A program made the translations under genes and the position numbers. Shown here piece by piece: positions 1 through 18,507 of a stretch of 18,507 bases of DNA. Position 1 is the first letter of the stretch. Each line of letters starts with the position of its first letter. A model generated the notes under the pieces. It searched no databases and was not told the DNA's origin. It saw nothing but the letters and a program-made list of their open reading frames with translations. The DNA comes from a virus (Duplodnaviria; Heunggongvirae; Uroviricota; Caudoviricetes). The stretch is from positions 1 through 18,507 of IMG/VR virus record IMGVR_UViG_2778261154_000007, one strand, 5' to 3'.

Positions 1-159
1 CCACGGGAATATCTGCGGCAGCGGGCTTGTAATGGGTTAAGTGATAACAGATGTCTGGAAATATAGGGGCAAATCCATCCGCGTGCTGATGTCGATTATC
101 TGTTTGCGCAGGTAATCGTTCATGAGCAACGTGTCGATACCACGCCTAACTGCGGCAAT

Positions 160-927: not shown

Positions 928-1002
928 AAAAATTCGTTGTCAGGATAAGGACAATCAATAAAGGACTTCTGTATGAGTCATACAGAAAGAACAGGATTTT
1001 AA

Positions 1003-2436: not shown

Positions 2437-2580
2437 ATATACTCGTCATACTTCAAGTTGCATGTGCTGCGTTTGCGTTCGCTCACCCCAGTCACTTACT
2501 TATGTAAGCTCCTGGGGATTCACTCACTTGTCGCCTTCCTGCAACTCGAATTATTTAGAGTATATCCATTTATTATCTTT

Positions 2581-2602
2581 CTGCGCACTTCACGGTGCGC
2601 AG
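2581..2602 (+). promoter_or_regulatory. Perfect 8-bp inverted repeat (CTGCGCAC-N6-GTGCGCAG) just upstream of the ybhJ-like start
   Basis: Read directly: ctgcgcac ttcacg gtgcgcag. No following T-tract, so more likely an operator or RNA structure than an intrinsic terminator. Confidence 0.3.
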
Positions 2603-2618
2603 ATATCTGGAGCATTTG

Positions 2619-4880
2619 ATGATCAAGTTATCTGAAAAAGGCGTGTTTCTCGCCAGTAATAACGAAATAATTGCCGAAGAACATTTCACCGGCGAAATTA
2701 AAAAAGAAGAAGCCAAAAAAGGCACTATTGCCTGGTCTATTCTCTCTTCTCATAATACGTCCGGAAATATGGATAAACTTAAAATTAAGTTTGATTCATT
2801 AGCCTCTCACGATATTACCTTTGTTGGTATTGTACAGACCGCTAAAGCGTCCGGAATGGAACGTTTCCCGCTGCCGTATGTGCTGACCAACTGCCATAAC
2901 TCACTCTGCGCCGTCGGCGGCACCATTAACGGTGATGACCATGTTTTTGGTTTATCGGCAGCTCAGCGTTATGGCGGTATTTTTGTGCCTCCGCATATTG
3001 CGGTCATCCATCAATATATGCGTGAGATGATGGCAGGCGGCGGCAAAATGATCCTCGGGTCAGACAGCCACACCCGTTACGGTGCATTAGGGACAATGGC
3101 AGTCGGTGAGGGCGGCGGTGAGTTGGTAAAACAGCTGCTTAATGACACCTGGGATATCGACTATCCGGGAGTTGTTGCGGTGCATCTGACCGGAAAACCA
3201 GCGCCGTATGTGGGGCCGCAGGATGTGGCGCTGGCTATCATCGGTGCCGTGTTCAAAAACGGCTACGTCAAAAACAAAGTGATGGAATTCGTAGGTCCCG
3301 GTGTTGCTGCGCTCTCTACCGATTTCCGTAACAGCGTTGACGTTATGACCACTGAAACGACCTGTTTAAGTTCTGTCTGGCAAACCGATGAAGAAGTCCA
3401 TAACTGGCTGGCGCTGCACGGTCGCGGCCAGGATTACTGCCAGCTTAACCCTCAACCGATGGCGTACTACGATGGCTGCATCAGCGTTGATTTAAGCGCC
3501 ATCAAACCAATGATTGCGCTGCCGTTCCACCCGAGCAACGTGTATGAAATCGACACACTGAACCAGAACCTGACCGACATTCTGCGTGAGATTGAAATTG
3601 AGTCCGAACGCGTGGCGCACGGTAAAGCCAAACTCTCGCTGCTGGATAAAGTGGAAAATGGTCGCCTGAAAGTGCAGCAGGGGATTATCGCGGGCTGTTC
3701 TGGCGGTAACTACGAAAACGTCATCGCGGCGGCGAATGCACTGCGCGGTCAATCCTGTGGCAATGACACCTTCTCGCTGGCAGTTTACCCGTCATCACAG
3801 CCGGTGTTTATGGATCTCGCCAAAAAAGGTGTGGTAGCAGATTTGATTGGCGCAGGCGCAATCATCAGAACCGCGTTCTGCGGCCCATGCTTTGGCGCGG
3901 GCGATACGCCAATCAACAACGGATTAAGTATTCGCCACACCACGCGCAACTTCCCGAACCGCGAAGGCTCTAAGCCAGCTAATGGGCAGATGTCAGCGGT
4001 GGCGTTGATGGACGCTCGTTCTATCGCTGCGACTGCGGCAAACGGTGGCTATTTAACCTCTGCCAGCGAACTTGATTGCTGGGACAACGTGCCGGAGTAC
4101 GCCTTCGATGTAACGCCGTATAAAAACCGTGTTTATCAGGGCTTTGTGAAAGGGGCAACTCAGCAACCGCTGATTTACGGACCGAACATTAAAGACTGGC
4201 CGGAATTGGGTGCGCTGACTGACAATATCGTCCTGAAAGTGTGCTCGAAGATCCTCGACGAAGTGACCACCACCGACGAACTGATTCCTTCCGGTGAAAC
4301 CTCTTCTTATCGTTCAAATCCGATTGGTCTGGCGGAGTTTACCCTGTCACGCCGCGATCCCGGTTATGTTGGCAGAAGTAAAGCGACTGCTGAGCTGGAA
4401 AATCAGCGTCTGGCGGGGAATGTCAGCGAGCTGACAGAGGTGTTTGCGCGCATTAAGCAGATTGCTGGTCAGGAGCATATTGATCCGCTGCAAACTGAAA
4501 TTGGCAGCATGGTATATGCGGTGAAACCAGGCGATGGTTCTGCGCGTGAACAGGCGGCGAGCTGCCAGCGTGTGATTGGCGGTCTGGCGAATATTGCCGA
4601 AGAGTACGCGACTAAACGCTACCGTTCTAACGTCATCAACTGGGGGATGTTACCGCTGCAGATGGCGGAAGTGCCAACCTTTGAAGTGGGGGATTACATT
4701 TACATCCCTGGCATTAAAGCGGCGCTGGATAATCCGGGTACGACGTTTAAAGGTTATGTGATCCATGAAGATGCGCCGGTAACGGAAATTACGCTCTATA
4801 TGGAAAGTCTGACTGCTGAAGAGCGCGAGATTATCAAGGCGGGTAGTTTGATTAACTTCAATAAAAACCGTCAGATGTAA
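2619..4880 (+). CDS. ybhJ: Aconitase-family hydratase/dehydratase (753 aa)
   Basis: Track ORF begins at GTG 2595, but ATG 2619 is preceded by GGAG (2608-2611) at good spacing and gives 753 aa. Glycine- and cysteine-containing motifs (GSDSHT, GCSGGN, CGPCFG) are typical of aconitase-family enzymes. Confidence 0.75.
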
Positions 4881-4892
4881 AAAGCGCCATGT

Positions 4893-5006
<114 letters not shown>

Positions 5007-5020
5007 ATAGTTAATTGCTC

Positions 5021-6304
5021 TTACTTCTTCGCCTCTGCAACCACTTTACTACCCACGCCGCGGTTATTGTATTCCCACATGCGGTTGTAGTTAGTGTCAT
5101 TCAGATTGCGCTGTATTTCGTCGTTATCATCTACGCTGCCGGTATTACCCGCAAACGGACGATTAGAGATCACCGCATCGGCCCACGGTTTAGCCGTGTT
5201 AAAACCTTCGTTGATGGCGCTATCACGGATCACCACCTGACCGTTGGTATTGGCATCAACATCCAGCGAGCGGCCCAGTTGCGCCACACCATCACCGAAA
5301 GCATTGAAACGGCTGTTTACGGCGAGGAAACCGTAGTAAATGTTGGACAGCGTAGCCGGTGCAAACACATACGCTTCTTGCTGAGTACGTGAGTTCACCA
5401 CGCGGAATTCGGTGTTATCGAACACCACTGCGCCGCGACCAGAAACGATATCCACATCCCCTTCAATGTAGCTGTTGGTCACCAGCGTACGCGGCTGACG
5501 ATTCGTTTCCAGACGGTTCTGCACACCGCTGTTGGTGACAAAGAAGGTGTTCTGACGACCGAGAATGTTAACGTTGTTAATCTGTACCTGGTCACCATCA
5601 GTACGCAGTGCCACCGCCGGATGGTTACCTGCATCTACGCTATCGCCCAGCGTGTTTTCGATGGTCAGATTTTGCAGTTGCAGGCCATTGTTTTGTGACC
5701 AGAAGACCGCAGAGCAGAGAACACCGATACTGTCGCTGCGTTTGCTCTGGCAGCTATCGTACATATACCACGCTGGTTTACCTGGCATATATTTGCCGCG
5801 CGGGTTGACGTCGTGACGCCAGTCGGCAGGGCTCATGCCACCATCAAGGGAAAGCCCAATCTTCACATCAATCGGTTTTTCACCTGTACCGTACAGAGTA
5901 ATTCCACCCGGAGCGGCAGGGACATATACCGTTCCCTGATACTCACCAGGCATCACGGCAATATACTGGCGCTTGTTGGTACGCTTGATAATTGCCGCAT
6001 CTACCGCCGCCTGAATCGTGGTATGCGTTACACCTTGAGTGCCCGCCGGGCCGACAACAAAGTCAGGTTGCGCAGGCAGGGTAATCGGGGAAGGATTCCA
6101 CGCTGCAGCACCTGGTGTCAGGGATGCAAAATAGTGTTGAGCATCGAAATTCTGCGCTTCTTTTGCCGACAGAATCGGGCGAGAAGAGGTACCAGGCGCG
6201 GTTTGATCAGAAGGACGTTGATCGGGCGGGGTTGAGCTACAGGCGGTCAGCGTCACGCCAAAAGCCAATGCCAGCGCCAGACGGGAAACTGAAAATGTGT
6301 TCAC
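5021..6304 (-). CDS. ybhC: Outer-membrane lipoprotein of the pectinesterase-like / acyl-CoA thioesterase family (427 aa)
   Basis: N-terminal lipoprotein signal with lipobox LTAC (MNTFSVSRLALALAFGVTLTACSS); 427 aa; immediately adjacent to the lambda attB core, as expected for ybhC. Confidence 0.8.
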   Translation of the reverse strand: MNTFSVSRLALALAFGVTLTACSSTPPDQRPSDQTAPGTSSRPILSAKEAQNFDAQHYFASLTPGAAAWNPSPITLPAQPDFVVGPAGTQGVTHTTIQAAVDAAIIKRTNKRQYIAVMPGEYQGTVYVPAAPGGITLYGTGEKPIDVKIGLSLDGGMSPADWRHDVNPRGKYMPGKPAWYMYDSCQSKRSDSIGVLCSAVFWSQNNGLQLQNLTIENTLGDSVDAGNHPAVALRTDGDQVQINNVNILGRQNTFFVTNSGVQNRLETNRQPRTLVTNSYIEGDVDIVSGRGAVVFDNTEFRVVNSRTQQEAYVFAPATLSNIYYGFLAVNSRFNAFGDGVAQLGRSLDVDANTNGQVVIRDSAINEGFNTAKPWADAVISNRPFAGNTGSVDDNDEIQRNLNDTNYNRMWEYNNRGVGSKVVAEAKK

Positions 6305-6340
6305 AGGTTGCTCCGGGCTATGAAATAGAAAAATGAATCC

Positions 6341-6438
6341 GTTGAAGCCTGCTTTTTTATACTAAGTTGGCATTATAAAAAAGCATTGCTTATCAATTTG
6401 TTGCAACGAACAGGTCATTATCAGTCAAAATAAAATCA
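6341..6438. other. Prophage left attachment site attL (host B arm, core GCTTTTTTATACTAA at 6351-6365, phage P' arm with Int arm-type/IHF region)
   Basis: The 15-bp lambda att core is read directly. Downstream sequence gttggcattataaaaaagcattgcttatcaatttgttgcaacgaacaggtcattatcagtcaaaataaaatcattatttg matches the lambda attP P' arm as recalled. Confidence 0.85.
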
Positions 6439-7509
6439 TTATTTGATTTCAATTTTGTCCCACTCCCTGCCTCTGTCATCACGATACTGTGATGCCATGG
6501 TGTCCGACTTGTGCCCGAGAAGATGTTGAGCAAACTTATCGCTTATCTGCTTCTCATAGAGTCTTGCAGACAAACTGCGCAACTCGTGAAAGGTAGGTGG
6601 ATCCCCTTCGAAGGAAAGACCTGATGCTTTTCGTGCGCGCATAAAATACCTTGATACTGTGCCGGATGAAAGCGGTTCACGACGAGTAGATGCAATTATG
6701 GTTTCTCCGCCAAGAATCTCTTTGCATTTATCAAGTGTTTCCTTCATTGATATCCCGAGAGCATCAACATGCAATGTTGTAGGGATGGCAATTTTTACGC
6801 CTGTTTTGCTTTGCTCGACATAAAGATATCCATCTACGATATCAGACCACTTCATTTCGCATAAATCACCAACTCGTTGCCCGGTAACAACAGCCAGTTC
6901 CATTGCAAGTCTGAGCCAACATGGTGATGATTCTGCTGCTTGATAAATTTTCAGGTATTCGTCAGCCGTAAGTCTTGATCTCCTTACCTCTGATTTTGCT
7001 GCGCGAGTGGCAGCGACCGGGTTTGTTGTTATATGGCCTTCAGCTATTGCCTCTCGGAATGCATCGCTCAGTGTTGATCTGATTAACTTGGCTGATGCCG
7101 CCTTGCCCTCGTCTATGTATCCATTGAGCATTGCCGCAATTTCTTTTGTGGTGATGTCTTCAAGTGGAGCATCAGGCAGCCCCCTCCTTATTGCTTTAAT
7201 TTTGCTCATGTAATTTATGAGTGTCTTCTGCTTGATTCCTCTGCTGGCGAGGATTTTTTCGTAGCGATCAAGCCATGAATGTAACGTAACAGAATTATCA
7301 CTGTTGATTCTCGCTGTCAGAGGCTTGTGTTTGTGTCCTGAAAATAACTCAATGTTGGCCTGTATAGCTTCAGTGATTGCGATTCGCCTGTCTCGGCCTA
7401 ATCCAAACTCTTTACCCGTCCTTGGGTCCCTGTAGCAGTAATATCCATTGTTTCTTATATAAAGGTTAGGGGGTAAATCCCGGCGCTCATGACTTCGCCT
7501 TCTTCCCAT
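6439..7509 (-). CDS. int: Lambda-type tyrosine integrase Int (356 aa)
   Basis: Translation MGRRRSHERRDLPPNLYIRNNGYYCYRDPRTGKEFGLGRDRR... matches lambda Int over its length; 356 aa; adjacent to attL. Confidence 0.95.
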   Translation of the reverse strand: MGRRRSHERRDLPPNLYIRNNGYYCYRDPRTGKEFGLGRDRRIAITEAIQANIELFSGHKHKPLTARINSDNSVTLHSWLDRYEKILASRGIKQKTLINYMSKIKAIRRGLPDAPLEDITTKEIAAMLNGYIDEGKAASAKLIRSTLSDAFREAIAEGHITTNPVAATRAAKSEVRRSRLTADEYLKIYQAAESSPCWLRLAMELAVVTGQRVGDLCEMKWSDIVDGYLYVEQSKTGVKIAIPTTLHVDALGISMKETLDKCKEILGGETIIASTRREPLSSGTVSRYFMRARKASGLSFEGDPPTFHELRSLSARLYEKQISDKFAQHLLGHKSDTMASQYRDDRGREWDKIEIK

Positions 7510-7705
7510 TTCTGATCCTCTTCAAAAGGCTACCTGTTACTGGTCGATTTAAGTCAACCTTTACCGCTGATTCGTGGAACAAATACTCTCTTCCATCCTT
7601 AACCGGAGGAGGGAATATCCTGCACTCGCGTACCCATCGACGAACTGTTTCAAGGCTCCTTGGGCGTCGCTGGCGTGCGTTCCACTCCTGAAGTGTCAAG
7701 TACAT
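7487..7705 (-). CDS. xis: Excisionase Xis (72 aa)
   Basis: Translation MYLTLQEWNARQRRPRSLETVRRWVRECRIFPPPVKDGREYLFHESAVKVDLNRPVTGSLLKRIRNGKKAKS matches lambda Xis; 23-nt overlap with int as in lambda. Confidence 0.95.
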   Translation of the reverse strand: MYLTLQEWNARQRRPRSLETVRRWVRECRIFPPPVKDGREYLFHESAVKVDLNRPVTGSLLKRIRNGKKAKS

Positions 7706-7759
7706 CGCAAAGTCTCCGCAATTACTCGCAAGGGAGCGAGTATTGGTTTATTTTCTCCA

Positions 7760-7783
7760 ACAAAAAAGGAGCCGAAGCTCCTT
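7760..7783 (-). terminator. Candidate rho-independent terminator downstream of the 207-aa AntA-like gene
   Basis: On the minus strand: GGAGCTTCGGCTCC hairpin (plus 7768-7781) followed by TTTTTTG. Confidence 0.5.
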
Positions 7784-7789
7784 TGATGA

Positions 7790-8413
7790 TTAAAATTCGA
7801 ATTGTCTCGCCCGAAGGCTTTTCAGCATTGGTTTTGCCCGTTCGAAAAGGGCGCTTGCTTGGTCAAGTCGTGTCGCCTCCCTTAGCAGTACATCTCTGTT
7901 TTTCGTCACCGTGTAAAAAGTTTCAAACGCGATGTCATACAGCTTGCTCGTGTATGATGAGTTCAGTTCCTTCAATATCGGGTACAGACGTTTGCAGATG
8001 TCCTGCGCATTCTCCATCTGTACCTGCATATAGCAAAGGAGGATGATTTCTTCGTCTGTGAATTGCTGCGCTGGTTGCATGCTGCGAAGTTTCTTTTCGC
8101 ACTCGATGAAGTATCGGCGTATCTGGCGGCCTTTTTCGTTACGCTCGACCATCGCCGTTTCTTTGGCTGTATCGAGGGTGAGGTGATAGTCTTTGCTACG
8201 GCGATCGCCTCCTCGACCTTTGATTTCCCGATTTGGGGAAACCAAAATATAGTCCTGATTTTCAACGAAACCATATTCAGCAATGCGTTCTGTAATCCAC
8301 GATGCAAAGCGTTTACCTACCCCAAGAAAAGTATGTAAATCACGGGCATTAACGAGAAGAGTTGTTTCGTTGGATATAGTGCCGTTGAATACGGGGATGA
8401 GTTGACTGGTCAT
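7790..8413 (-). CDS. Phage antirepressor-like protein (AntA/AntB N-terminal domain-like), 207 aa
   Basis: N-terminal segment ISNETTLLVNARDLHTFLGVGKRFASWITERIAEYGFVENQDYI resembles AntA/AntB-type antirepressor domains; located in the b2-proximal accessory region next to xis. Confidence 0.55.
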   Translation of the reverse strand: MTSQLIPVFNGTISNETTLLVNARDLHTFLGVGKRFASWITERIAEYGFVENQDYILVSPNREIKGRGGDRRSKDYHLTLDTAKETAMVERNEKGRQIRRYFIECEKKLRSMQPAQQFTDEEIILLCYMQVQMENAQDICKRLYPILKELNSSYTSKLYDIAFETFYTVTKNRDVLLREATRLDQASALFERAKPMLKSLRARQFEF

Positions 8414-8734
8414 TTTTATGTCCTTTGCATTTGTTCAGATAGCCCTGTGTTCAGCAGGGCGGTCAGGTACTTGAACACCGTGCAAAGTCGGCCCGTATCC
8501 TTAACCTTTCGGCTGTTTTTCGGTATACGCGCTACCCGACCATATCTGAAAAATGGACATAAAAAATCCGCATGACTGACGGGTGCGGTTTCCGCTTTGC
8601 AAGGTGTGTTCAGCACCATGAAGCGGAATATAGCCCCGTTAATGCGGTGTTGTCAAATCATGTAGGCCTTATCTTGCTGTAAGCCGCGCCATTCGGGCTT
8701 TTCCCCACATTTGGGGAAAACTATCTTGTCAAAA

Positions 8735-9517
8735 TCATGCAGCCTTTCGCCCTCCTTCGATGAGTTCCTCTATTTTGTGCACTCCAGCCTCGTTGTACCG
8801 AAATGTTTCAACCTGCTTGTCATTGTGCGCCGATTTGTCGATGAACCACTTCCCGTACTTTTCTGTTTTGAGCATGTAGGTGTTGGCTATGCGTCCTACC
8901 TTGTTGGCTGAAATACCGTAGCGCTGGCCGACTTCCGTAGCAGAGTAGTAGTGCTCTGAGATAGCTGGCAGAGGTACAACATCGCGACCAACAATCGGGT
9001 TGAACACTCCAGCTACTGCTGCCTGCTTTGATTCTGAGGACAGATTCGGGAACATATTCACCAGTCGATCCGCCACGTTCAAAGCTATTTCCATGGCTCG
9101 CGCACGGTCTAGGCTACTTTCTGGTTGCGGTACTGGTTGAGGATGGTTGGCAACCTTTTCGCGCTGATTGAAGTAGCCGTCCTCCAGTTTTTCGAACACG
9201 TCCCATGCCTGATCCGTTTCGAGCATCTTCGCGTGACGGGCGGCTCCGCGCTCTGTCCAGAGGATGAGGTGGCGTGCATTTGGGGCAATTTTCACAAAGT
9301 AGTTTAAAGCTACTTTGTGTTTTAGCGCGCGCAGCTCGTCACCAACGACCTTGTAGAAGTGTACCCCCTCAACAAAGCGCGACTTGTTTTCATGATGGTT
9401 TTGCCGGATGCGCACAACATCCGTTCCGTACAACTGCGCCAATAGTTCGCTGGTGATGACGTTGGTTTGTTTGTAGGTGATTGGTGAAAGTGTTTCAACA
9501 GAAATTTGAGCATTCAT
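8735..9517 (-). CDS. Phage regulatory/antirepressor-family protein (ORF6N/Rha-like N-terminal domain), 260 aa
   Basis: N-terminal TSELLAQLYGTDVVRIRQNHHENKSRFVEGVHFYKV resembles ORF6N/Rha-type domains; the C-terminal half is unrelated. Confidence 0.5.
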   Translation of the reverse strand: MNAQISVETLSPITYKQTNVITSELLAQLYGTDVVRIRQNHHENKSRFVEGVHFYKVVGDELRALKHKVALNYFVKIAPNARHLILWTERGAARHAKMLETDQAWDVFEKLEDGYFNQREKVANHPQPVPQPESSLDRARAMEIALNVADRLVNMFPNLSSESKQAAVAGVFNPIVGRDVVPLPAISEHYYSATEVGQRYGISANKVGRIANTYMLKTEKYGKWFIDKSAHNDKQVETFRYNEAGVHKIEELIEGGRKAA

Positions 9518-9641
9518 AGCGTCCTCACATTGGCTTTTGCATTGAAGAAAGCTTGACGGTGAACTCGCCGTAACGAGTTCAGATAAAAGAAATCCCCGCG
9601 AGTGCGAGGATTGTTATTTACCTTTGACGGCAAGTTGCAGG

Positions 9642-10172
9642 TTAGCCACGGTTAACCTCCTGCGGCGGTTCTGGTAGCTGCATCCAGTGGGTTACCTCTT
9701 TGAGATACAGGTCTTCGCCATCACCGTCATCCCAAGTGGGATTGCCATCATTAAACCAGTCGCCATATACGCCGACCTGAGTGTTGGGGATGTTTGGTGG
9801 GTAGTTGTTTTTAAAGTCAGCTGCTAACACATAGCATTGTCGCTCTCCCATTTCTGGCATTCGCTCACTACAGCTTATCCAGGCATCCGGAGTTACCGGC
9901 ACTGGCTGGGCGGTATAAAGCGGTGTTATATCTGCCCGAAAATTACATGCTTTATGCAGCCGCACCCACCGTTCGACTTCTGCTTTGTCAGAATACATAC
10001 CAGTGAACGTGTTATATTCACGGTCAATTTGCGTGAAGGTTACCTTCCACGCCACCGGCTCTGCTGTCAGCGATGCCAGAGCAATTTCATAAGCACGGCG
10101 TTCAACATTGTCTCGCACATCCAAACTGCTGATACGCTCTTTGATTTCTTTAATCAGTTCTTTGTCGTTCAC
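9642..10172 (-). CDS. DUF551-like phage protein, 176 aa (GTG start)
   Basis: C-terminal W-rich segment WISCSERMPE...VTHWMQLPEPP resembles the DUF551 domain common in lambdoid early-left regions. Confidence 0.5.
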   Translation of the reverse strand: MNDKELIKEIKERISSLDVRDNVERRAYEIALASLTAEPVAWKVTFTQIDREYNTFTGMYSDKAEVERWVRLHKACNFRADITPLYTAQPVPVTPDAWISCSERMPEMGERQCYVLAADFKNNYPPNIPNTQVGVYGDWFNDGNPTWDDGDGEDLYLKEVTHWMQLPEPPQEVNRG

Positions 10173-10252
10173 TTATGCCTCCGATTCCCGGATGTCACCC
10201 AAATCAACGCTACAATGCCAACCAGTGCAACGAGCGCAAAACTATCAAGCAT
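10169..10252 (-). CDS. Putative 27-aa hydrophobic peptide ([27 protein letters not shown])
   Basis: ATG preceded by AAGAGG; single predicted TM helix; its TGA overlaps the GTG start of the downstream gene (GTGA) and its ATG overlaps the stop of the upstream gene. Confidence 0.3.
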   Translation of the reverse strand: MLDSFALVALVGIVALIWVTSGNRRHK

Positions 10253-10748
10253 CTCCAACCTCTTTAACGGTAACTGTCTGTGCCTCCAGTTCTGCTATGC
10301 GCTTTTCTGAGGCTTCAAGTAACGCCTGCTTATCGCGTAGCGCTTCTTCCAGTTCAGCAACATGGCATTCACTATCAATAAGGTTGTTCTCTGCTGCTTC
10401 CAGCTCAACACGCAACTTCCCTACCGTTAGCGCAATTTCCTCGTTCTCCTGATCGCGGCTTTTGATGTATTGCAGGTTTCTTTCCCGTTCATCCAGTAGT
10501 GCCAGCGCAACATTTGGATTAAAAGCAGCAATAAATTCAGCGTTTGCATAAGCCTGAACATCTGTTTCAACCAGGCAGTTAACATGACATTCCGCAATCA
10601 CACCACCGGGTTCTCCTTTCCATTTTTGACAAACAAAAACTCCTGTTATATTCCCATGCTGATTGCCCGATGTATGCCCTACGATGTAGCTCCCTTTCGT
10701 TGCCTTTTCTGCCGCATCACGCAGTGCCTGGTAATTAATTTTGCTCAC
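10245..10748 (-). CDS. Ead/Ea22-like phage protein with C-terminal coiled coil
   Basis: Start placed at internal GTG 10748, preceded by AAAGGAGG at 6 nt, rather than the track GTG at 10769. Sequence [18 protein letters not shown]... resembles ead/Ea22-like family; C-terminal heptad-rich region. Confidence 0.5.
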
Positions 10749-10912
10749 TGTTTGCCTCCTTTGCGCCACATCGCATTCAGATATTTGTTTTGATTTACTG
10801 ACGGAAAAGAATTTCTCTTAAGCAATTCCTCTCTCGATGGCATTGGCTTTACGCGTTGGCGAATAATCATTTCTGCCGGAAGAATGCCGGGATTGTATGC
10901 AAGTCCTCTCAT
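10745..10912 (-). CDS. Putative 55-aa small ORF, translationally coupled at both ends
   Basis: ATG overlaps the upstream stop (ATGA) and its TGA overlaps the downstream GTG start (GTGA); the Ea22-like RBS AGGAGG lies inside it. Confidence 0.3.
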
Positions 10913-11199
10913 GATTTACTCTCCACGAACTGGTCAACGGCCATGCTAAGTGACACACCTAAAGTCTCGATATGCTGCTGAATATCCTGTAGCGTCCGCG
11001 CCTGAGATAACAGAATTTCACGGTTGCATAACTCTTTAACCAGATGCTCAAACTTGCTGTAATAACCGATACGGCTTAGTGTTTCTTTCCCTGCATTCTC
11101 ACCTTCTTTGATAATTCCTCTTTCACTAAGAATCAGGTCGTGTTTGGTTCCGGTAATAACGTATTTTCCGAGGTCGATGTTTAGCTTCATTGTTTTCAT
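10909..11199 (-). CDS. Hypothetical phage protein (96 aa)
   Basis: Start moved to ATG at 11199 ([11 protein letters not shown]...), preceded by GAGGAA at 6 nt; the longer track ORF lacks an RBS. Confidence 0.45.
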
Positions 11200-11209
11200 T
11201 GTTAATTCC

Positions 11210-11503
11210 TCAGTCATTACTGATAGCGCCATAGCGTGAGCGGTAATTACGCAGGCGCGGGTCAATTTCAGGGAAGTGGGTATATGTGGCTTTGCGGAAT
11301 GGTCGGATTGATGTCTGGTAAATTCGCTCTCGTTCTTCTTTCTCTGCAAGCCATATACAGTGGCGAAATTCCTTTTCCTCTTTCGTTTCCTGCGGTAGCG
11401 ACATTATCCGATCGTAGTTTTTTCTGAATTTATCCAGCACCTCCGATACGGAATTGCCGGAACAGCGGCGCGGGTCATCCGCACCATACAGAGGCGCTGG
11501 CAT
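11210..11503 (-). CDS. Hypothetical phage protein (97 aa), basic
   Basis: ORF in operon context between the Sak4 module and downstream small genes; weak RBS, start uncertain. Confidence 0.4.
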   Translation of the reverse strand: MPAPLYGADDPRRCSGNSVSEVLDKFRKNYDRIMSLPQETKEEKEFRHCIWLAEKEERERIYQTSIRPFRKATYTHFPEIDPRLRNYRSRYGAISND

Positions 11504-11526
11504 AATGGGAGCCTTATTTTCAGTAA

Positions 11527-12114
11527 TCAGAAAGGAGGGTAATCGTTCTGGCTGTAACCATAATCATCTGCATGATTCTGGCTTACGTTTTTAGCGCGAT
11601 TGTCTTTATCTTTGAGGCTGGCAACCATGTTGGCGATAGTTTCTGGTTGCTTGCCTTCCGACTTTTCTTTAAGGGTTTGACCTGTTTGTGCAATAAACGG
11701 GATGCGTATTTCCATCTGGTAGCTGTCTGCGCCAGTCTTTTTGTTTGTGGTTAATACTTTCTGGAGCACTAACCCGATTTTCTTTCCATGAAATTCAGGA
11801 GCAACAAATTTACTGGCGGAAACCATATGTTGCGTTAACTGCTTAATCCCAACACACCCCATCATGGCATGAACGACGTTTGCACCAAACTTGTTTTCCG
11901 TTCCGTCATTTTTCTGAACACAAACGCTAAGATATTGGATTTTACGTCCGTCGTCGGATTCGCCAGAAAGCTCAATAAATTTTGCGCCTTTTTCTGATTG
12001 CTTTAGTTCTGCTTCAGTAATGGTAATGATATGAGCGCCAGTTTCGTTAATAAAACCACCTTGCCCTGCGGTCAGTGCTGCTTCTTCGTTATAAGTAAAA
12101 ATCACGTTGCTCAT
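11527..12114 (-). CDS. Sak4-associated phage protein (possibly DUF669-family recombination accessory protein), 195 aa
   Basis: Start overlaps the Sak4-like stop by 4 nt (translational coupling); the position and size fit the partner gene of Sak4-type modules. Confidence 0.5.
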   Translation of the reverse strand: MSNVIFTYNEEAALTAGQGGFINETGAHIITITEAELKQSEKGAKFIELSGESDDGRKIQYLSVCVQKNDGTENKFGANVVHAMMGCVGIKQLTQHMVSASKFVAPEFHGKKIGLVLQKVLTTNKKTGADSYQMEIRIPFIAQTGQTLKEKSEGKQPETIANMVASLKDKDNRAKNVSQNHADDYGYSQNDYPPF

Positions 12115-12791
12115 GCGGCGTTTTCCTTAATTTGATGAACATTATTGATGCCGTAGTAATCACAAACAGTGGCATCGACGAAAGAGAGATCGTTATCAAT
12201 CTCATTGGAGTCAAACATTCCCATTGGGGATTTAACAGTGTCTGCACCGTTGTTTTTCGTGGTGAAAAAGAACTGGTCATCACGGGTAAGGGTGCGAAGA
12301 ACTATAGTAAACATGCCTTCGACAGTGATTTTCTCGTCCAGCATTTTTCCTATAGTTTTCATTTTCACGCGCCCCATAGGGGTTTCTTCGGTGTGCGCAA
12401 GAAAATAGACTCTCAGGTCATCTGGCGCATCCTGTGCAGCCTTAATCACCTCCCATGCGTGGCGGCCTATCTCAGTAAATTTATCAAACGATTTTTCTTC
12501 TGAGCGGCGCATAAACTCATTGCTCATCACATACTGGAAGTCATCAACAATAACGATTCTTTTCCCGTATTCGTGAGCACGCTTAATTACGGCAACTATT
12601 ACGTCCCATTTATCAGTGGTAACTACGGTTCCTTTTTTTGCTCTGGCATCCCATGCCAGCCAGTCTTTTGATTTAAATGGCAGCGGCTTGCCTATTGGTT
12701 TTATAAGTATTGCTTCCTCTGGATTGATATTTCTCATGCTGGTTGATTTTCCGGTGCCAGACTCACCGAGTATTAATGTCGCAGTTCCCAT
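12111..12791 (-). CDS. Sak4-like RecA-fold P-loop ATPase (phage single-strand annealing/recombination protein), 226 aa
   Basis: N-terminal Walker A GESGTGKS and Walker B-like hhhhDD (RIVIVDD); size and position in the early-left operon where lambda carries exo/bet. Confidence 0.7.
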   Translation of the reverse strand: MGTATLILGESGTGKSTSMRNINPEEAILIKPIGKPLPFKSKDWLAWDARAKKGTVVTTDKWDVIVAVIKRAHEYGKRIVIVDDFQYVMSNEFMRRSEEKSFDKFTEIGRHAWEVIKAAQDAPDDLRVYFLAHTEETPMGRVKMKTIGKMLDEKITVEGMFTIVLRTLTRDDQFFFTTKNNGADTVKSPMGMFDSNEIDNDLSFVDATVCDYYGINNVHQIKENAA

Positions 12792-12799
12792 AATTTGCC

Positions 12800-12988
12800 T
12801 CAGAATGGTAATTCGGATGGGGAGGAAAGAAACTCGCGCTCATTCATGCGCTCTCTTTGTGCCTGCCATAAACAAAGTTGTTTCTTTGATTTATCTCCCG
12901 CTTTACGCCAGTAACGAGCCTCAGCAATGTGATATTCTCTTTTTAATCGACTTAACTCTGGAGTTTTCGCCAGCTCTACCGGAATCAT
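12800..12988 (-). CDS. Hypothetical small phage protein (62 aa)
   Basis: Start set to second ATG (MIPVELAK...), which is preceded by GGAGG at 5 nt; overlaps the end of the kil-like ORF. Confidence 0.35.
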   Translation of the reverse strand: MIPVELAKTPELSRLKREYHIAEARYWRKAGDKSKKQLCLWQAQRERMNEREFLSSPSELPF

Positions 12989-13098
12989 TTTGACCTCCAT
13001 TTTTTATAGGCTTCGACGGCTTCACGAAACATCTTTTCATCGCCAATAAAAGTGGCGATAGTGAATTTAGTCTGGATAGCCATAAGTGTTTTATCCAT
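12985..13098 (-). CDS. kil: Kil-like small protein (37 aa) at the kil position downstream of cIII
   Basis: ATG overlaps the cIII stop region; translation MDKTLMAIQTKFTIATFIGDEKMFREAVEAYKKWRSK; position and overlap as for lambda kil. Not in the track as a separate ORF (below 60 aa). Confidence 0.45.
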   Translation of the reverse strand: MDKTLMAIQTKFTIATFIGDEKMFREAVEAYKKWRSK

Positions 13099-13231
13099 TT
13101 TTGGGAACTCCTGGCTGATTAAGTACGTCGATGAGTCGTTTCCATCCGTCACGTAATTTACGGGTGATTCGTTCAAGTAAAGATTCGGAAGGGCAGCCAG
13201 CAACAGGCCACCCTGCAATGGCATATTGCAT
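13091..13231 (-). CDS. cIII: cIII (FtsH inhibitor / CII stabiliser), 46 aa
   Basis: Manual translation of the minus strand: MQYAIAGWPVAGCPSESLLERITRKLRDGWKRLIDVLNQPGVPKNG, matching lambda CIII through its conserved central helix; RBS AGGAG upstream. Not in the track (below 60 aa). Confidence 0.8.
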   Translation of the reverse strand: MQYAIAGWPVAGCPSESLLERITRKLRDGWKRLIDVLNQPGVPKNG

Positions 13232-13264
13232 GGTGTGCTCCTTATTTACGCTTTAAATTGCTCC

Positions 13265-13292
13265 GTGTATTCACTCGTTGGAATGAATACAC
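13265..13292 (-). promoter_or_regulatory. 9-bp stem hairpin (GTGTATTCA-N10-TGAATACAC) in the leader upstream of cIII
   Basis: Read directly; no T-tract follows on either strand, so not an intrinsic terminator. Lies between the 207-aa gene stop and the cIII RBS. Confidence 0.35.
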
Positions 13293-13336
13293 AGTGCAGT
13301 GTTTATTCTGTTGTTTATGCCAAAAATAAAGACCAA

Positions 13337-13960
13337 CTATGCGGCCTCGGAAGGAAGTCCAATCATCTTATTCAAATCTTCTACCCGTAAAGCAGGAAGT
13401 GCTGTACTTGCTTTATCTGCTTCTTTTGGTAGCAATTCTTTGCTTTCAGGCCAAACTTCAATAAGTCGCTTAACTGTTGTGACTGAGTTCAAAGCAGCCC
13501 ATACATTTGATTCGATATCCTTTTTCCTGGCTTTAAGTTTTTGTTGCAATGCGCAGATTTCATCAAACCTTTTTGTTATTTCGTGTTCTGCGCTAAACAT
13601 GCATTTATCTCTGGTCGGAGTAGGGAGCAATATATCTTCGCCGTTGCCGTCTTTCCCATATGAATACCATCCAACCCTTCTGCCAGATACAGTCAGATAA
13701 ATTGAAGTAGAACGAACATCGCATGAGTAAAATGAACATCCCATCTTTTCAAGTTCTTCACTTATAGCTACCAACTTGGATGATAACTGATCCACTTCCT
13801 CAGTTTTCTTCTTCCCGCCAAACGCAACAACTCTGGCGTCAAGTGCAAGCTGGTTCTTTAGCTTTGTTACTTCTTCAAGTTCAGTGAACACCCCGGACTT
13901 AATTAAAGCGTTGCGTGCTATTACTTCTTTTATTCTCGTTGTTAAGCGGATTGATGACAT
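13337..13960 (-). CDS. Hypothetical protein of unknown function (207 aa) in the N-cIII accessory slot
   Basis: Start moved to ATG 13960 (MSSIRLTT...), preceded by GAGG; no TM segments, predicted helical/coiled regions; no motif I recognise. Confidence 0.55.
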   Translation of the reverse strand: MSSIRLTTRIKEVIARNALIKSGVFTELEEVTKLKNQLALDARVVAFGGKKKTEEVDQLSSKLVAISEELEKMGCSFYSCDVRSTSIYLTVSGRRVGWYSYGKDGNGEDILLPTPTRDKCMFSAEHEITKRFDEICALQQKLKARKKDIESNVWAALNSVTTVKRLIEVWPESKELLPKEADKASTALPALRVEDLNKMIGLPSEAA

Positions 13961-13971
13961 ATTAATTCCTC

Positions 13972-14298
13972 TCAAATAAGTGGTTTGCTGCCTGATTTCA
14001 TTTTCTGGCGACCAACACAAGTCACACCCATTTCACTGCGTGGCTTGCTGTACCATGTGCGCTGATTCTTGCGCTCAATACGTTGCAGGTTGCTTTCAAT
14101 CTGTTCGTGGTATTCAGCCAGCACCGTAAGGTCTATCGGATTCAGTGCGCTTTCTACTCGTGATTTCGGTTTGCGATTCAGCGAGAGAATAGGGCGGTTA
14201 ACTGGTTTTGCGCTTACCCCAACCAACAGGGGATTTGCTGCTTTCCATTTAGCCTGTTTCTCTGCGCGACGTTCGCGGCGGCGTGTTTGTACATCCAT
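13972..14298 (-). CDS. N: Antitermination protein N (108 aa) with arginine-rich motif
   Basis: Translation from ATG 14298 (RBS AGGAG): MDVQTRRRERRAEKQAKWKAANPLLVGVSAKPVNRPILSLNRKPKSRVESALNPIDLTVLAEYHEQIESNLQRIERKNQRTWYSKP... matches lambda N; the track ORF extends spuriously upstream. Confidence 0.9.
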   Translation of the reverse strand: MDVQTRRRERRAEKQAKWKAANPLLVGVSAKPVNRPILSLNRKPKSRVESALNPIDLTVLAEYHEQIESNLQRIERKNQRTWYSKPRSEMGVTCVGRQKMKSGSKPLI

Positions 14299-14455
14299 CT
14301 GGATTCTCCTGTCAGTTAGCTTTGGTTGTGTGTGGGAGTCGTAGTCCTGAACGAAAACACCCCGCAATGGCACATTGGCAGCTAATCCGGATTCGCACTT
14401 CCGGCCAATGCTTCGTTTCGTATCACACACACCAAAGCCTTCTGCTTTGAATGCT

Positions 14456-14485
14456 GCCCTTCTTCAGGGCTTAATTTTTAAGAGC
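14456..14485 (-). promoter_or_regulatory. nutL (boxB GCCCTGAAGAAGGGC; boxA-like TGCTCTTA)
   Basis: Minus-strand sequence gctcttaaaaattaagccctgaagaagggc; boxB is a perfect hairpin identical to lambda nutL boxB. Confidence 0.8.
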
Positions 14486-14518
14486 ATCACCTTTATGGTG
14501 GTCAGTGCGTCCTGTTGA

Positions 14519-14590
14519 TGTGCTTAGCATCACCGCCAGTGGTATTTATGTCAACACCGCCAGAGATAATTTATCACCGCAGATGGTTAT
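14519..14590 (-). promoter_or_regulatory. pL promoter with oL1-oL2-oL3 operators (lambda immunity specificity)
   Basis: Three 17-bp sites: cATCACCGCCAGTGGTA (14528-14544), CAACACCGCCAGAGATA (14552-14568), TATCACCGCAGATGGTT (14572-14588); -35 TTGACA and -10 GATGCT on the minus strand with 17-bp spacing. Confidence 0.8.
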
Positions 14591-14737
14591 CTGTATGTTT
14601 TTTATATAGATTTATTTTTTGCCGGGGTGTGTTGCTGGGGTTGGTGATCGAGAGATCAGAATTGCACTGTTTAGTGAGTTGTATCTATTAATTTTAAAAT
14701 AAATACAATTGGTTATGTATTTTTTTGGGGGCGTGAG

Positions 14738-14765
14738 GCAAAGAAAACCCGGCGCTGAGGCCGGG
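14738..14765 (-). terminator. Candidate intrinsic terminator downstream of the rexB-like gene (tIMM-like)
   Basis: Hairpin CCCGGC-GCTGAG-GCCGGG (14748-14765) followed on the minus strand by GTTTTCTTTG. Confidence 0.5.
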
Positions 14766-14768
14766 TTG

Positions 14769-15206
14769 CTATTTGTTTGAGAATTTTAGAAGTTGAAAAA
14801 GTATGATGCTTATATGCATCATTGATGAAGCTGACAGGCCGATCGATAAGGATGGCAACAAGGCAATTGGTTGCTTACTGGTGGCCATTAAAAACAAACC
14901 CATAAAAAAAACAATGCCAAGTTCCGCAAAGGTCAGTGCATACAGAATGATGACAGATGTCATATATCCGTAAGCCTTTACTTTTTGCATGTTTTTTCCT
15001 CTGATGCCGATGACGAATGTCAACGCGGCAATGAGTATTGCGATAGTAGTCCCTGCATATGAAGATATAGCTGCGCCCAGCGCGTCTCTGTGCTCGGTGA
15101 ACGAAATTGATGAGGCAACGCTACGGAAAATGCAGTAGACGACAATAGTTAAAAGTATTGGTAAAACGAATAGCAATACGCCGGGAACGATCCTGTGCTC
15201 TCTCAT
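14769..15206 (-). CDS. rexB: RexB-like integral membrane protein (145 aa, four predicted TM helices)
   Basis: Occupies the rexB position (between pL/oL and rexA, same strand as cI). Four hydrophobic segments (LLFVLPILLTIVVYCIF; TTIAILIAALTFVIGI; YMTSVIILYALTFAELGIVFFMGLFLMA; LSIGLSASSMMHISIILFQLL). Size is close to lambda RexB (about 144 aa). Confidence 0.6.
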   Translation of the reverse strand: MREHRIVPGVLLFVLPILLTIVVYCIFRSVASSISFTEHRDALGAAISSYAGTTIAILIAALTFVIGIRGKNMQKVKAYGYMTSVIILYALTFAELGIVFFMGLFLMATSKQPIALLPSLSIGLSASSMMHISIILFQLLKFSNK

Positions 15207-15236
15207 GCTTCCTCCATCACCCTTAGGTATTCACTC

Positions 15237-16067
15237 TTACTCGTCTTCACAAAAATCTTTATAACTTTTCGTTATGACATTTTTCATTCTTATATAGCAA
15301 ATTTCCATTTCCTCGGCAATTTCTTCATTTGTCGATTTGTAAATGTTGGCGCTGATATGCCCCTTGCTTGAAAGGTAGTAGTCAGTTAACAAATCAGCTG
15401 CGTACTCCTTTGCTTTAAGGTGTATGTCGCTATGAGAATCATCGGCATTACGAATCAGTTCCTTTGACATGTTGCTAATATTTCTCATTCTTTTGGGTTT
15501 TATTGTTATTTCTATACCTTCAAGAAGCTCTTCTTCGATAGTTTCTATCCCGGCGGCCCTCAGTAGAGGAGAAAAAAGCTTGGAGCCAGACTCAACTCTT
15601 AAGGTTGTTCTACCGATGAACTCCATGTCGAGAGCATCATCTCTGGTTACGTCTCTCATCAGAGGTTCTAAACATAGTTTGAATGGATTTGTTATGTTCA
15701 ATTTATTAGATAAGTAAATTTCAAGCTCACGAATTCTTGGCCCGTGTTGAGTGCAGGCGTAACCAACGATGCCATCCTTGATCAACAGGAATGATGGAAA
15801 TGCTAGCGTTTCGTCACTACCTAATACGTTTTTAATTTCATCGACTGATAGTGTGGTTTTATTGACCCTTTTAACCAAGTCTGAGTCGTATGTTTTTGTT
15901 ATTAAATAACATTCTCTGCTGATGTGATGAGCGAATATAAAGTAATCATCAATCTCTAAGGCATTATTTTTTGCTTTGATTACCTGTTCGGATAAGCCTG
16001 ACACCAAATCAATAGGGAAACGTTCCTTACCGTTTTGTTGATAGAAAGCGTAAAAATTAAGTTTCAT
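15237..16067 (-). CDS. rexA: RexA-like soluble protein (276 aa), partner of the membrane protein
   Basis: Occupies the rexA position immediately downstream of cI on the same strand. Size is close to lambda RexA (about 279 aa); conserved-looking blocks FPSFLL, LEPLMRDVTRDD, FIGRTTLRVE, YYLSSKGH, EEIAEEMEICYIRMK. Appears much more divergent from lambda than the flanking cI and N. Confidence 0.6.
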   Translation of the reverse strand: MKLNFYAFYQQNGKERFPIDLVSGLSEQVIKAKNNALEIDDYFIFAHHISRECYLITKTYDSDLVKRVNKTTLSVDEIKNVLGSDETLAFPSFLLIKDGIVGYACTQHGPRIRELEIYLSNKLNITNPFKLCLEPLMRDVTRDDALDMEFIGRTTLRVESGSKLFSPLLRAAGIETIEEELLEGIEITIKPKRMRNISNMSKELIRNADDSHSDIHLKAKEYAADLLTDYYLSSKGHISANIYKSTNEEIAEEMEICYIRMKNVITKSYKDFCEDE

Positions 16068-16198
16068 ATATCAATCCGTTATATCTGGCGTAAGTCATCA
16101 TATCGTTAAAGTACATAAAATTTCTTTTTGCGTTGATGTAATGAATGGCAGCTTGAAAACCTGCTGGTAATCCTACGCCCGGAGCACTTTTCCATCCA

Positions 16199-16915
<717 letters not shown>

Positions 16916-16919
16916 TTAA

Positions 16920-17000
16920 ATCTATCACCGCAAGGGATAAATATCTAACACCGTGCGTGTTGACCATTTTACCTCTAGCGGTGATAATGGTTGCATGTAC
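16920..17000. promoter_or_regulatory. oR3-oR2-oR1 operators with divergent pRM and pR promoters
   Basis: TATCACCGCAAGGGATA (oR3, 16923-16939), TAACACCGTGCGTGTTG (oR2, 16946-16962), TACCTCTAGCGGTGATA (oR1, 16970-16986); pR -35 TTGACC and -10 GATAAT; cro RBS TAAGGAGG. Confidence 0.85.
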
Positions 17001-17003
17001 TAA

Positions 17004-17213
<210 letters not shown>

Positions 17214-17224
17214 ATAACCCCGCT

Positions 17225-17300
17225 CTTACACATTCCAGCCCTGAAAAAGGGCATCAAATTAAACCACACCTATGGTGTATGTATTTATTTGCATGCATTC
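17225..17300 (+). promoter_or_regulatory. nutR (boxA CGCTCTTAC, boxB GCCCTGAAAAAGGGC) followed by the tR1 region
   Basis: ccccgctcttacacattccagccctgaaaaagggc read directly; boxB is a perfect hairpin. Confidence 0.75.
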
Positions 17301-17331
17301 AATCAATTGTTATCTAAGGAAATACTTACAT

Positions 17332-17628
17332 ATGGTTCGTGCAAACAAACGCAACGAGGCTCTACGAATCGAGAGTGCGTTGCTTAACAAAATCGCAATG
17401 CTTGGAACTGAGAAGACAGCGGAAGCTGTGGGAGTTGATAAGTCGCAGATCAGCAGGTGGAAGAGGGATTGGATTCCAAAGTTCTCAATGCTGCTTGCTG
17501 TTCTTGAATGGGGCGTCGTTGACGACGATATGGCTCGATTGGCACGACAAGTTGCTTCGATTCTCACCAATAAAAAACGCCCGGTGTGCAAGACCGAGCG
17601 TTCTGATCAAATACAGATGGAATTCTGA
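17332..17628 (+). CDS. cII: CII transcriptional activator (98 aa)
   Basis: Start at ATG 17332 (RBS TAAGGA), not the track start 17272; MVRANKRNEALRIESALLNKIAMLGTEKTAEAVGVDKSQISRWKRDWIPKFSMLLAVLEWGVVDDDMARLARQVA... matches lambda CII. Confidence 0.9.
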   Translation: MVRANKRNEALRIESALLNKIAMLGTEKTAEAVGVDKSQISRWKRDWIPKFSMLLAVLEWGVVDDDMARLARQVASILTNKKRPVCKTERSDQIQMEF

Positions 17629-17660
17629 GGGAATTACTGGATCAATCCACAGGAGTCATT

Positions 17661-18419: not shown

Positions 18420-18507
18420 ACCGCCCCGGGTTTCCTGGAGAGTGTTTTATCTGTGAACTCAGGCTGCCAGATCATCGTTTCCGATGGAAGCATAATAAGC
18501 TTTTTCT

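Follow-up and report, generated by a model that had tools for sequence, protein, structure and literature searches.

Between an Ea22-like gene and its neighbours, the minus strand of a lambda-like prophage carries two open reading frames (ORFs) of very small size, 27 and 55 amino acids (aa), and the question arises of whether either of them is a gene that annotation has overlooked. The stretch studied here, called the window, is the whole of IMG/VR record IMGVR_UViG_2778261154_000007 (positions 1 to 18,507). In an initial annotation, both ORFs were described as members of a chain of translationally coupled micro-ORFs, and the product of the shorter one was compared with small phage toxins. The reading that we favour, with moderate confidence, is that the 27-aa ORF is a real gene, translationally coupled and never annotated, for a single-pass inner-membrane peptide, and that the 55-aa ORF is a DUF2737 gene.

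Anatomy and signals of the 27-aa ORF

The proposed chain of overlapping, coupled ORFs proved to be real, and both small ORFs were present as described, on the minus strand and with ends overlapping their neighbours. The TGA of the upstream DUF5405 gene (11199-10909) overlapped the ATG of the 55-aa ORF (10912-10745) as ATGA, the TGA of the 55-aa ORF overlapped the GTG at 10748 of the Ea22-like gene (stop at 10245) as GTGA, and the TGA of the 27-aa ORF (10171-10169) overlapped the GTG at 10172 of the DUF551 gene (reaching to 9642), also as GTGA. An overlap of this four-letter type had been claimed throughout the chain and was found at these three junctions but not at the start of the 27-aa ORF; there, the TGA of the Ea22-like gene (10247-10245) lay 5 nucleotides (nt) past the ATG at 10252, forming an 8-nt overlap, ATGCTTGA. 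The chain is ordinary for this early-left (PL) operon, because overlaps of 4-8 nt were present at most junctions from kil to DUF551 in the annotation made by the Prokaryotic Genome Annotation Pipeline (PGAP) of a 99.9% identical prophage in Escherichia coli VL40.

The plausible Shine-Dalgarno (SD) sequence claimed for the 27-aa ORF (10169-10252 with its stop, minus strand) was also found. The motif AAGAGGT (10258-10264, minus strand) was separated from the ATG by a 5-nt spacer. The SD sequence of the DUF551 gene, GGAGG (10178-10182, minus strand), lay 5 nt before its GTG and inside codons 24-25 (CGG AGG) of the 27-aa ORF, and another GGAGG was located 6 nt ahead of the GTG of the Ea22-like gene.

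The 27-aa peptide is predicted to form a single transmembrane (TM) helix at approximately residues 4-21, followed by a basic C-terminal tail. Of the helix and tail noted in the initial annotation, the helix was predicted here as well and was hydrophobic in both alleles found in this study, whereas the tail is partly a by-product of the signal for the next gene, because CGG-AGG, which encodes Arg-Arg, contains the GGAGG of the DUF551 SD sequence. The 17-residue Kyte-Doolittle mean of the peptide was 2.51; the window holds 215 small ORFs of 20-60 aa, and only two of them, this ORF included, reach such a hydropathy. Its codon-usage log-likelihood, 0.07 per codon, fell within the range of real genes, whose windows place it at the 11th percentile, and exceeded that of 98% of off-frame windows. 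An ORF filling a 73-nt gap is not rare per se, and hydropathy and codon usage give weaker support than the selection test described below.

The 27-aa ORF was not called by PGAP in any annotated genome examined, in which the gap was left empty, and it was skipped by the gene calls of the assembly collection. The exact 27-aa and 29-aa versions were absent from 15 billion proteins, and the ORF had no match to Pfam, PHROG or NCBIfam models. To judge whether it is a fragment of a larger membrane protein, its 41-aa stop-to-stop frame was compared with two protein sets, and this origin was rejected, as the frame had no relatives in either of them. A structured RNA, riboswitch or small RNA at this site was likewise rejected, as there was no Rfam hit at the ORF and the folding of 10150-10300 was no better than that of shuffles (z = -0.16).

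A second allele and the mosaic joint

The evidence that carries the favoured reading came from a second locus. A scan of IMG/VR with the N-terminal codons alone revealed a single additional locus, the phiP27-like enterobacterial prophage L239, which is only approximately 80-89% identical to known E. coli phages. L239 carried a diverged 27-aa ORF in a layout identical to that of the window. Upstream was a different, short, 85-aa Ea22-like gene ending in VTIKEVTNA, whose stop was overlapped by the ATG through the same 8 nt; downstream, a GTGA overlap led into MNDKELIKEIKERIGSLDV.. (MNDKELIK..), with a 140-aa body unlike the DUF551 chimera of the window. The AAGAGGT at 5 nt before the ATG, the start, the stop and the hydrophobic helix were all kept in L239, and at the site of the DUF551 SD sequence L239 had TGG AGA, in which GGAG is retained.

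The two alleles differed at 10 of 84 nt, with three, one and six differences at codon positions 1, 2 and 3, respectively. In the frame of the micro-ORF, six of the changes were synonymous and four were non-synonymous. Three of the latter (V14L, I17F and W18L) exchanged one hydrophobic residue for another within the helix, and the fourth (R24W) was in the tail. Read in either of the alternative frames, these 10 changes gave one synonymous and nine non-synonymous differences and zero and 10, respectively. The Nei-Gojobori method gave a synonymous rate (dS) of 0.39, a non-synonymous rate (dN) of 0.07 and a dN/dS of 0.18 for the 27-aa ORF; the corresponding values over the initial 43 codons of the neighbouring bona fide gene were 0.47, 0.08 and 0.16. 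The synonymous excess in the 27-aa ORF was significant by Fisher's test (P = 0.015). When 10 random substitutions with the same transition/transversion mix were simulated, the probability of obtaining at least six synonymous changes together with an intact ORF was 0.013. Conservation of the frame in related prophages, which had been suggested as a check, was therefore observed in L239, with a low dN/dS between two alleles.

Before L239 was found, a gene and an artefact of the junction seemed equally likely. According to the latter explanation, the 27-aa ORF would be fortuitous, having arisen in a recombination joint between an Ea22 gene without its C-terminal domain and a downstream gene with a replaced 5' end, and its apparent conservation would reflect the recent divergence of two copies and the constraint on SD and start signals. 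The ORF is indeed located exactly where phage homology breaks, between Ea22 homology that ends at approximately 10275-10290 and a shared N-terminus that begins at 10167. In addition, the canonical MTTFT start of the next gene is replaced, both flanks were flagged as partial by PGAP, the sequence is an orphan without homologues, and the chance of a stop-free frame of 27 codons is approximately 0.27 per frame. However, the joint recurs with the ORF intact in another prophage, in which both the Ea22-like gene and the body of the downstream gene differ from those of the window, the substitution pattern fits coding in this frame only, and hydropathy as extreme as this is rare among spurious ORFs. 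A fortuitous origin is thus considered unlikely.

The structure of the two flanks was as follows. The Ea22-like gene (10245-10748, minus strand), of 167 aa from the GTG at 10748, matched Pfam Ead_Ea22 over positions 1-139 of 139 (E 3e-38). Its product had the N-terminal and coiled-coil parts and no C-terminal domain of the lambda type (the domain scheme of Ea22, including the lambda C-terminal domain, is given in PMC10834534). Because this domain is lacking, the gene was labelled by PGAP as a pseudogene missing its C-terminus. Homology to the Ea22 gene of phage BP-4795 ended at 10290, and a KRIAELE motif common to the E212 Ea22-like gene, which reads KRIAKLE in lambda Ea22, ran to approximately 10275. 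The last ten or so codons of the gene (..VTVKEVGDA and stop) belonged to the module shared with L239. The possibility that the Ea22 frame retains a C-terminal domain of the lambda type in decayed form was considered and not adopted. The segment 10169-10280 gave no DNA alignment with the C-terminal domain of lambda or E212 Ea22, and the protein local score was marginal, 27 against approximately 20 +/- 4 for shuffles of another frame of this segment, and was driven only by VKEVG/VREVG.

The DUF551 gene (9642-10172, minus strand; Pfam DUF551, E 2e-19) encodes a chimeric 176-aa protein that, by blastn boundaries, consisted of three parts: an N-terminus at 10047-10167, a unique middle, and the DUF551 domain at 9652-9899, which was BP-4795-like. 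In the 99.9% identical VL40 prophage, this ORF, although uninterrupted, was divided by PGAP into two features, a 'pseudogene' fragment and a coding sequence of lesser length. From 10167 downwards, the DNA encoded an N-terminal 'boundary' sequence, ..DKELIKEIKERISSLDVRDN.., that is widely shared and occurred in more than 200 phage records. Elsewhere, in 119 sampled IMG/VR contexts with 36 distinct upstream sequences, the boundary gene nearly always started with MTTFT, with minor variants. Its typical start, ATG-ACC-ACT-TTT-ACC, was replaced in the window by GTG-AAC, and in IMG/VR this GTG-AAC variant occurred only with the micro-ORF upstream (6/6).

The Ea22 tail, the micro-ORF and the GTG-AAC start with its N-terminus MNDKELIKEIKERISSLDVRDN.. 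together spanned 10070-10278 (minus strand) and were approximately 87% identical to L239 12212-12420. Because the same arrangement recurs in L239 at this identity, it may be concluded that 10070-10278 is a transmitted module and not a one-off scar. It would travel compactly, as the last ten or so codons of Ea22, the micro-ORF and the GTG-start variant of the next gene.

Several observations were made on the parts of this module. The 40 N-terminal codons of the DUF551 gene (..DKELIKEIKERISSLDVRDNVERRAYEIALASL.., 10047-10167, minus strand) form a mosaic boundary that was also present in approximately 2900 E. coli genomes, and it headed many genes of the ea region that are otherwise unrelated and are annotated as Ea22, EaA, DUF551, YfdT and even 'valyl-tRNA synthetase'. 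Two very different Ea22-like genes, that of 167 aa in the window and that of 85 aa in L239 (11988-12245), shared the tail VT[VI]KEV[GT][DN]A and stop, which replaces the lambda-type C-terminal domain, and the micro-ORF came next in both loci. Because both genes share the tail and the following micro-ORF, it is possible that the Ea22 tail and the 27-aa peptide work together. In other genomes carrying the module, insertions of the elements IS2 and IS600 truncated Ea22 (L007, L241 and others); L007 was therefore rejected as an independent context for the 27-aa ORF, its differing upstream sequence being such an insertion into Ea22.

A second alternative is that only the act of translation matters and that the ORF is a relay, with a functionless peptide, by which ribosomes are kept coupled over the 73 nt that separate the stop of Ea22 from the start of DUF551. 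Both ends of the ORF overlap the stop or start of a neighbour, the downstream SD sequence lies inside the ORF and would be unfolded by a ribosome translating from upstream, and coupling is the rule in this operon, all of which would suit such a role. A relay, however, needs only an open frame, so that the synonymous excess and the retained hydrophobic helix are left unexplained, and the DUF551 gene has its own strong GGAGG at a 5-nt spacing. This alternative was judged to be improbable.

The distribution of the ORF was narrow. Degenerate-codon scanning of IMG/VR yielded five identical copies of the window allele, and five further scans of this kind always returned the same six loci with two alleles. 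Protein searching with the MNDKELIK N-terminus added one further copy only, of the window allele. In the metagenome scan, two contigs carried an identical micro-ORF with flanks 97.9% identical to the window; the patterns used for the metagenome scan and for that of GTDB do not match the L239 allele. The downstream 176-aa protein was found, as an exact sequence, in 510 blocks of the assembly collection, and its carriers included the chromosome HE616528.1, which we take to be that of Shigella sonnei 53G. A truncated variant, P0005, was found on one contig, with the source label Shigella flexneri. A source of the orphan DNA, a segment of approximately 110 nt, was sought in phages, plasmids and other E. 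coli genomes, and none was found.

A number of these results weigh against the view that the 27-aa ORF is a gene. With no more than two alleles, the selection test draws on 10 substitutions, and no within-allele information is available, since 20 of the 20 examined copies of the window allele were identical. The last five codons double as the SD sequence and start of the next gene and are thus constrained for another reason, and the hydrophobic core is short, at 16-19 residues. The 41-aa stop-to-stop frame had no relative among 5.8 billion proteins (by shared words) or 1.84 billion representatives (by HMMER). The DNA at 10150-10290 was rare, being present in five of 5426 complete E. coli genomes, always at 100% identity, and the segment was absent from 50,697 phage records and 72,556 plasmids. 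In the degenerate-codon scan of GTDB species representatives, no 27-aa ORF was found, and the only match was a chance TM helix in Roseibium. Finally, given the pseudogene call for Ea22, the region around the ORF could be viewed as decaying.

Possible role and other membrane micro-proteins of ea operons

For the 27-aa peptide, the following course of expression and action may be proposed. The ORF would be transcribed only within the N-antiterminated PL transcript, after induction or infection. In a consensus scan, which weak promoters may escape, no sigma-70-like promoter was detected on either strand of 9400-11600, where 3.1 were expected by chance. Translation would begin from the ORF's own SD sequence, by reinitiation of ribosomes terminating at the Ea22 stop, or by both routes, and termination at the TGA inside GTGA would pass ribosomes to the DUF551 gene. 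The peptide is predicted to insert into the inner membrane with its short N-terminus outside and its basic tail in the cytoplasm, as expected from the positive-inside rule. Most likely, to judge by analogy with other proteins of up to 30 aa, it would act through binding to a larger protein of the membrane and not as an enzyme. Action on larger membrane partners is named in PMC12648545 as the commonest mode among bacterial membrane proteins of up to 50 aa.

The analogy with small phage toxins was not supported. For a membrane-depolarising type I toxin checked by an antisense RNA, the peptide does have a fitting size and shape, with less than 60 aa, a single TM helix and a short charged tail, as PMC12648545 describes for such toxins. 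It shares its length and one-helix hydrophobic architecture with Hok, Ldr, TisB, Ibs, ShoB, DinQ and ZorO. Unlike for these toxins, no antisense RNA, promoter of its own, structured leader or family match was detected for the 27-aa ORF. Rfam gave no hit to a toxin or antitoxin family anywhere in the window, neither strand of 9400-11600 showed a promoter-like site, RNA structure was not in excess (z = -0.16), and no similarity to known toxin families was found in Pfam, PHROG or NCBIfam. Moreover, the ORF is part of a long operon, to whose genes it is coupled, and does not form a stand-alone locus with a structured 5' untranslated region. The assignment to a type I toxin-antitoxin locus was rejected on the lack of promoter or antisense evidence, and a toxin of this type is regarded as very improbable.

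Hardly credible is the explanation that the helix anchors the C-terminus of the Ea22-like protein in the membrane, being either joined to it by a +1 frameshift at GCU-UGA or split off from it by an ancestral indel. The micro-ORF is in the +1 frame relative to Ea22, the GCT TGA TAG context is identical in both alleles, and in the window an SD-like GGAG stands 2 nt before the GCU, in an arrangement that loosely recalls the prfB frameshift site. Nevertheless, a shift from GCU to CUU would give poor re-pairing of the tRNA, the GGAG is not kept in L239 (which has ACAA), an ATG and an SD sequence belonging to the ORF itself are conserved, and no fused protein was found among 5.8 billion proteins. 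Fusion by frameshifting was consequently judged unlikely, on the poor re-pairing, the lack of a slippery site and the non-conserved stimulator.

In its properties, the 27-aa ORF resembled the unannotated small membrane proteins described previously (Weaver et al. 2019, bioRxiv 10.1101/511675; PMC12648545), which have up to 50 aa, one TM helix and short termini, are missed by pipelines and are often recognised by an SD sequence and a conserved frame. It differed from the described families in that it had no sequence relationship to them, was phage-borne within a PL operon and overlapped genes at both ends. It also belonged to the same operon and position class as the small ORFs of the exo-xis region of lambda and Shiga toxin (Stx) phages (orf60a, orf61, orf63, orf73, ea8.5 and ea22; PMC4195576, PMC7093339), which lie between the recombination genes and xis and are early-expressed, highly mosaic accessory genes; Ea22 is the immediate neighbour of the 27-aa ORF. 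The products of those ORFs, however, are soluble, annotated proteins of 60-180 aa, and none of them is a TM peptide of less than 30 aa. As stated in PMC4195576, which cites Liu et al. 2013, ribosome profiling revealed previously unappreciated ORFs in lambda. The 27-aa ORF is therefore a probable addition, of narrow distribution, to the known class of unannotated small membrane proteins and no new kind of system. Taken alone, this is a modest result, as the 55-aa ORF is known, the overlaps are routine and the 27-aa ORF is narrowly distributed; if the peptide is made, it would be a phage-encoded membrane micro-protein that no pipeline calls.

Another group of micro-proteins, absent from the window, was observed in related prophages. 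These WPEAF micro-proteins have 22-29 aa and the pattern M-x-WPEAF-xx-VGVA-[TM helix]-..RWG. Their ORF lies between the DUF551 stop, with an ATGA overlap, and the DUF4222 start, for example at 914-1000 (minus strand) in BP-4795 (L002, NC_004813.1), and also at 12742-12828 in L239 and in L023 and L119. In IMG/VR, 111 occurrences were found, with 19 peptide variants and 26 DNA variants. Of 5426 complete E. coli genomes, 487 (approximately 9%) contained the DNA, and nothing was annotated there among the 12 matches listed. Elsewhere, among 15 billion proteins, entries were no more than sporadic and were named 'hypothetical protein'. The family matched no model of Pfam, NCBIfam or PHROG, and no literature on it was found.

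Like the 27-aa ORF, the WPEAF ORFs encode a single TM helix, fill a slot in the same operon in a coupled manner and are largely unannotated. The WPEAF slot, in contrast, is downstream of DUF551 and holds 19 variants, whereas the window peptide is encoded upstream of DUF551 and has two. Membership of the 27-aa peptide in the WPEAF family was rejected, as a hidden Markov model of 14 variants gave it 2.1 bits, ranking at approximately 460 among 5000 shuffles.

Two further hydrophobic ORFs were seen in other loci. One, of 43 aa (MRMFNNLPGTGFFVVFGVICAVIGWAVIESILWLLSFIHITIG), was located at 5430-5561 (plus strand) in L032, directly upstream of the MTTFTDKELIK gene and hence in the slot of the 27-aa ORF; its upstream context was shared by L058 and L120, and its exact sequence was absent from 15 billion proteins. 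The other, of 29 aa (MMPPVKVVIITLVMIVIARIMSGEIVWIW), was found in L115 and was similar in kind.

From the WPEAF family it is evident that micro-genes of this type exist in ea operons. It is tentatively proposed, as a possibility short of an even chance, that the early-left (exo-xis/ea) operons of lambdoid prophages hide a repertoire of single-pass membrane peptides of up to 30 aa, which would be coupled slot-fillers between ea genes, nearly unannotated, and early effectors on host membrane proteins. Its members would be the MLDSF peptide of the window, the WPEAF family, including that of Stx phages, and further peptides 29 and 43 aa long. In lambda and Stx phages, it is known that the decision between lysis and lysogeny is biased by small genes of the exo-xis/ea operon; if such a repertoire exists, its peptides might influence this decision, exclusion or host physiology. 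The 27-aa ORF and the commoner WPEAF family suggest that gaps of approximately 70-90 nt between ea genes are candidate micro-genes.

The 55-aa ORF and the prophage setting

The 55-aa ORF (10745-10912, minus strand) is not a novel micro-ORF; it is a phage gene already on record as a member of the DUF2737 family. It was assigned to this family by Pfam (PF10930), by phrog_1117 and by PGAP (WP_001214453.1). The match to PF10930 covered profile positions 1-51 of 53 with 109.2 bits (E 9e-32), compared with a cut-off of 25, and the match to phrog_1117 had an E value of 1.3e-37. The ORF was a homologue of Sf6 gp23, and the Sf6 record calls gene 23 similar to HK620 HkaI; compared with the family as represented by PF10930, phrog_1117, Sf6 gp23 and HkaI, it was a full member with no difference. 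At least 1000 contigs carried the exact 55-aa protein, which was named 'DUF2737 family protein' there. The claim that both small ORFs escape standard annotation thus held for the 27-aa ORF and was wrong for the 55-aa ORF, because PGAP already annotates the DUF2737 protein there. With regard to the function of DUF2737, no informative literature was found, and the family was only mentioned in passing.

The gene upstream of the 55-aa ORF encodes a DUF5405 protein, a homologue of Sf6 gp24 of 96 aa from the ATG at 11199 (10909-11199, minus strand; PF17399, E 2.6e-5; phrog_154, E 4e-32), and PGAP placed its start at 11190. The DUF5405 identity was also backed by the annotation of Sf6 and of E. coli VL40. 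The order abc2, DUF5405, DUF2737 and Ea22 of Sf6 (genes 25-24-23) was the same as that in the window and in VL40.

The window consisted of host genes followed by the left arm of a lambdoid prophage on the minus strand. The host genes encode PrpF-like, Na/sulfate symporter family and aconitase-family proteins and a pectinesterase-like YbhC, and the integration site of the prophage adjoined the ybhC-like and ybhJ/I/H-like genes (window 1-6400, 6439-7705). This neighbourhood presumably corresponds to the classical surroundings of lambda attB. The prophage part began with int (6439-7509, minus strand), encoding a lambda-type integrase with an arm-binding domain, and the adjoining xis. These were followed by an AntA-like gene, an ORF6N gene and then the early-left operon read from PL, with the order N, Nmad5-like, cIII, kil, ATPase, DUF669, abc2, DUF5405, DUF2737, Ea22-like and DUF551. 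Both small ORFs were therefore located in the exo-xis/ea part of this operon. Beyond the operon was the immunity region, with rexB/rexA-like genes, cI, cro and cII.

Three features other than protein-coding genes were also recorded. A Lambda_thermo cIII thermoregulator RNA (13186-13244, minus strand; 88.5 bits) was located upstream of cIII, as expected in a lambdoid prophage. In the consensus scan, where terminator-like hits were no more numerous than in shuffled sequence, a terminator-like hairpin with a T-run was found at 9591-9612 (minus strand), 30 nt past the DUF551 stop, and it is possibly the end of this stretch of the operon. An Rfam match to sRNA-Xcc1, with 68 bits against a gathering score of 53, was obtained at 8453-8541 (minus strand), inside or overlapping a 67-aa ORF without a Pfam match (8416-8619) that is located between the AntA-like and ORF6N genes.

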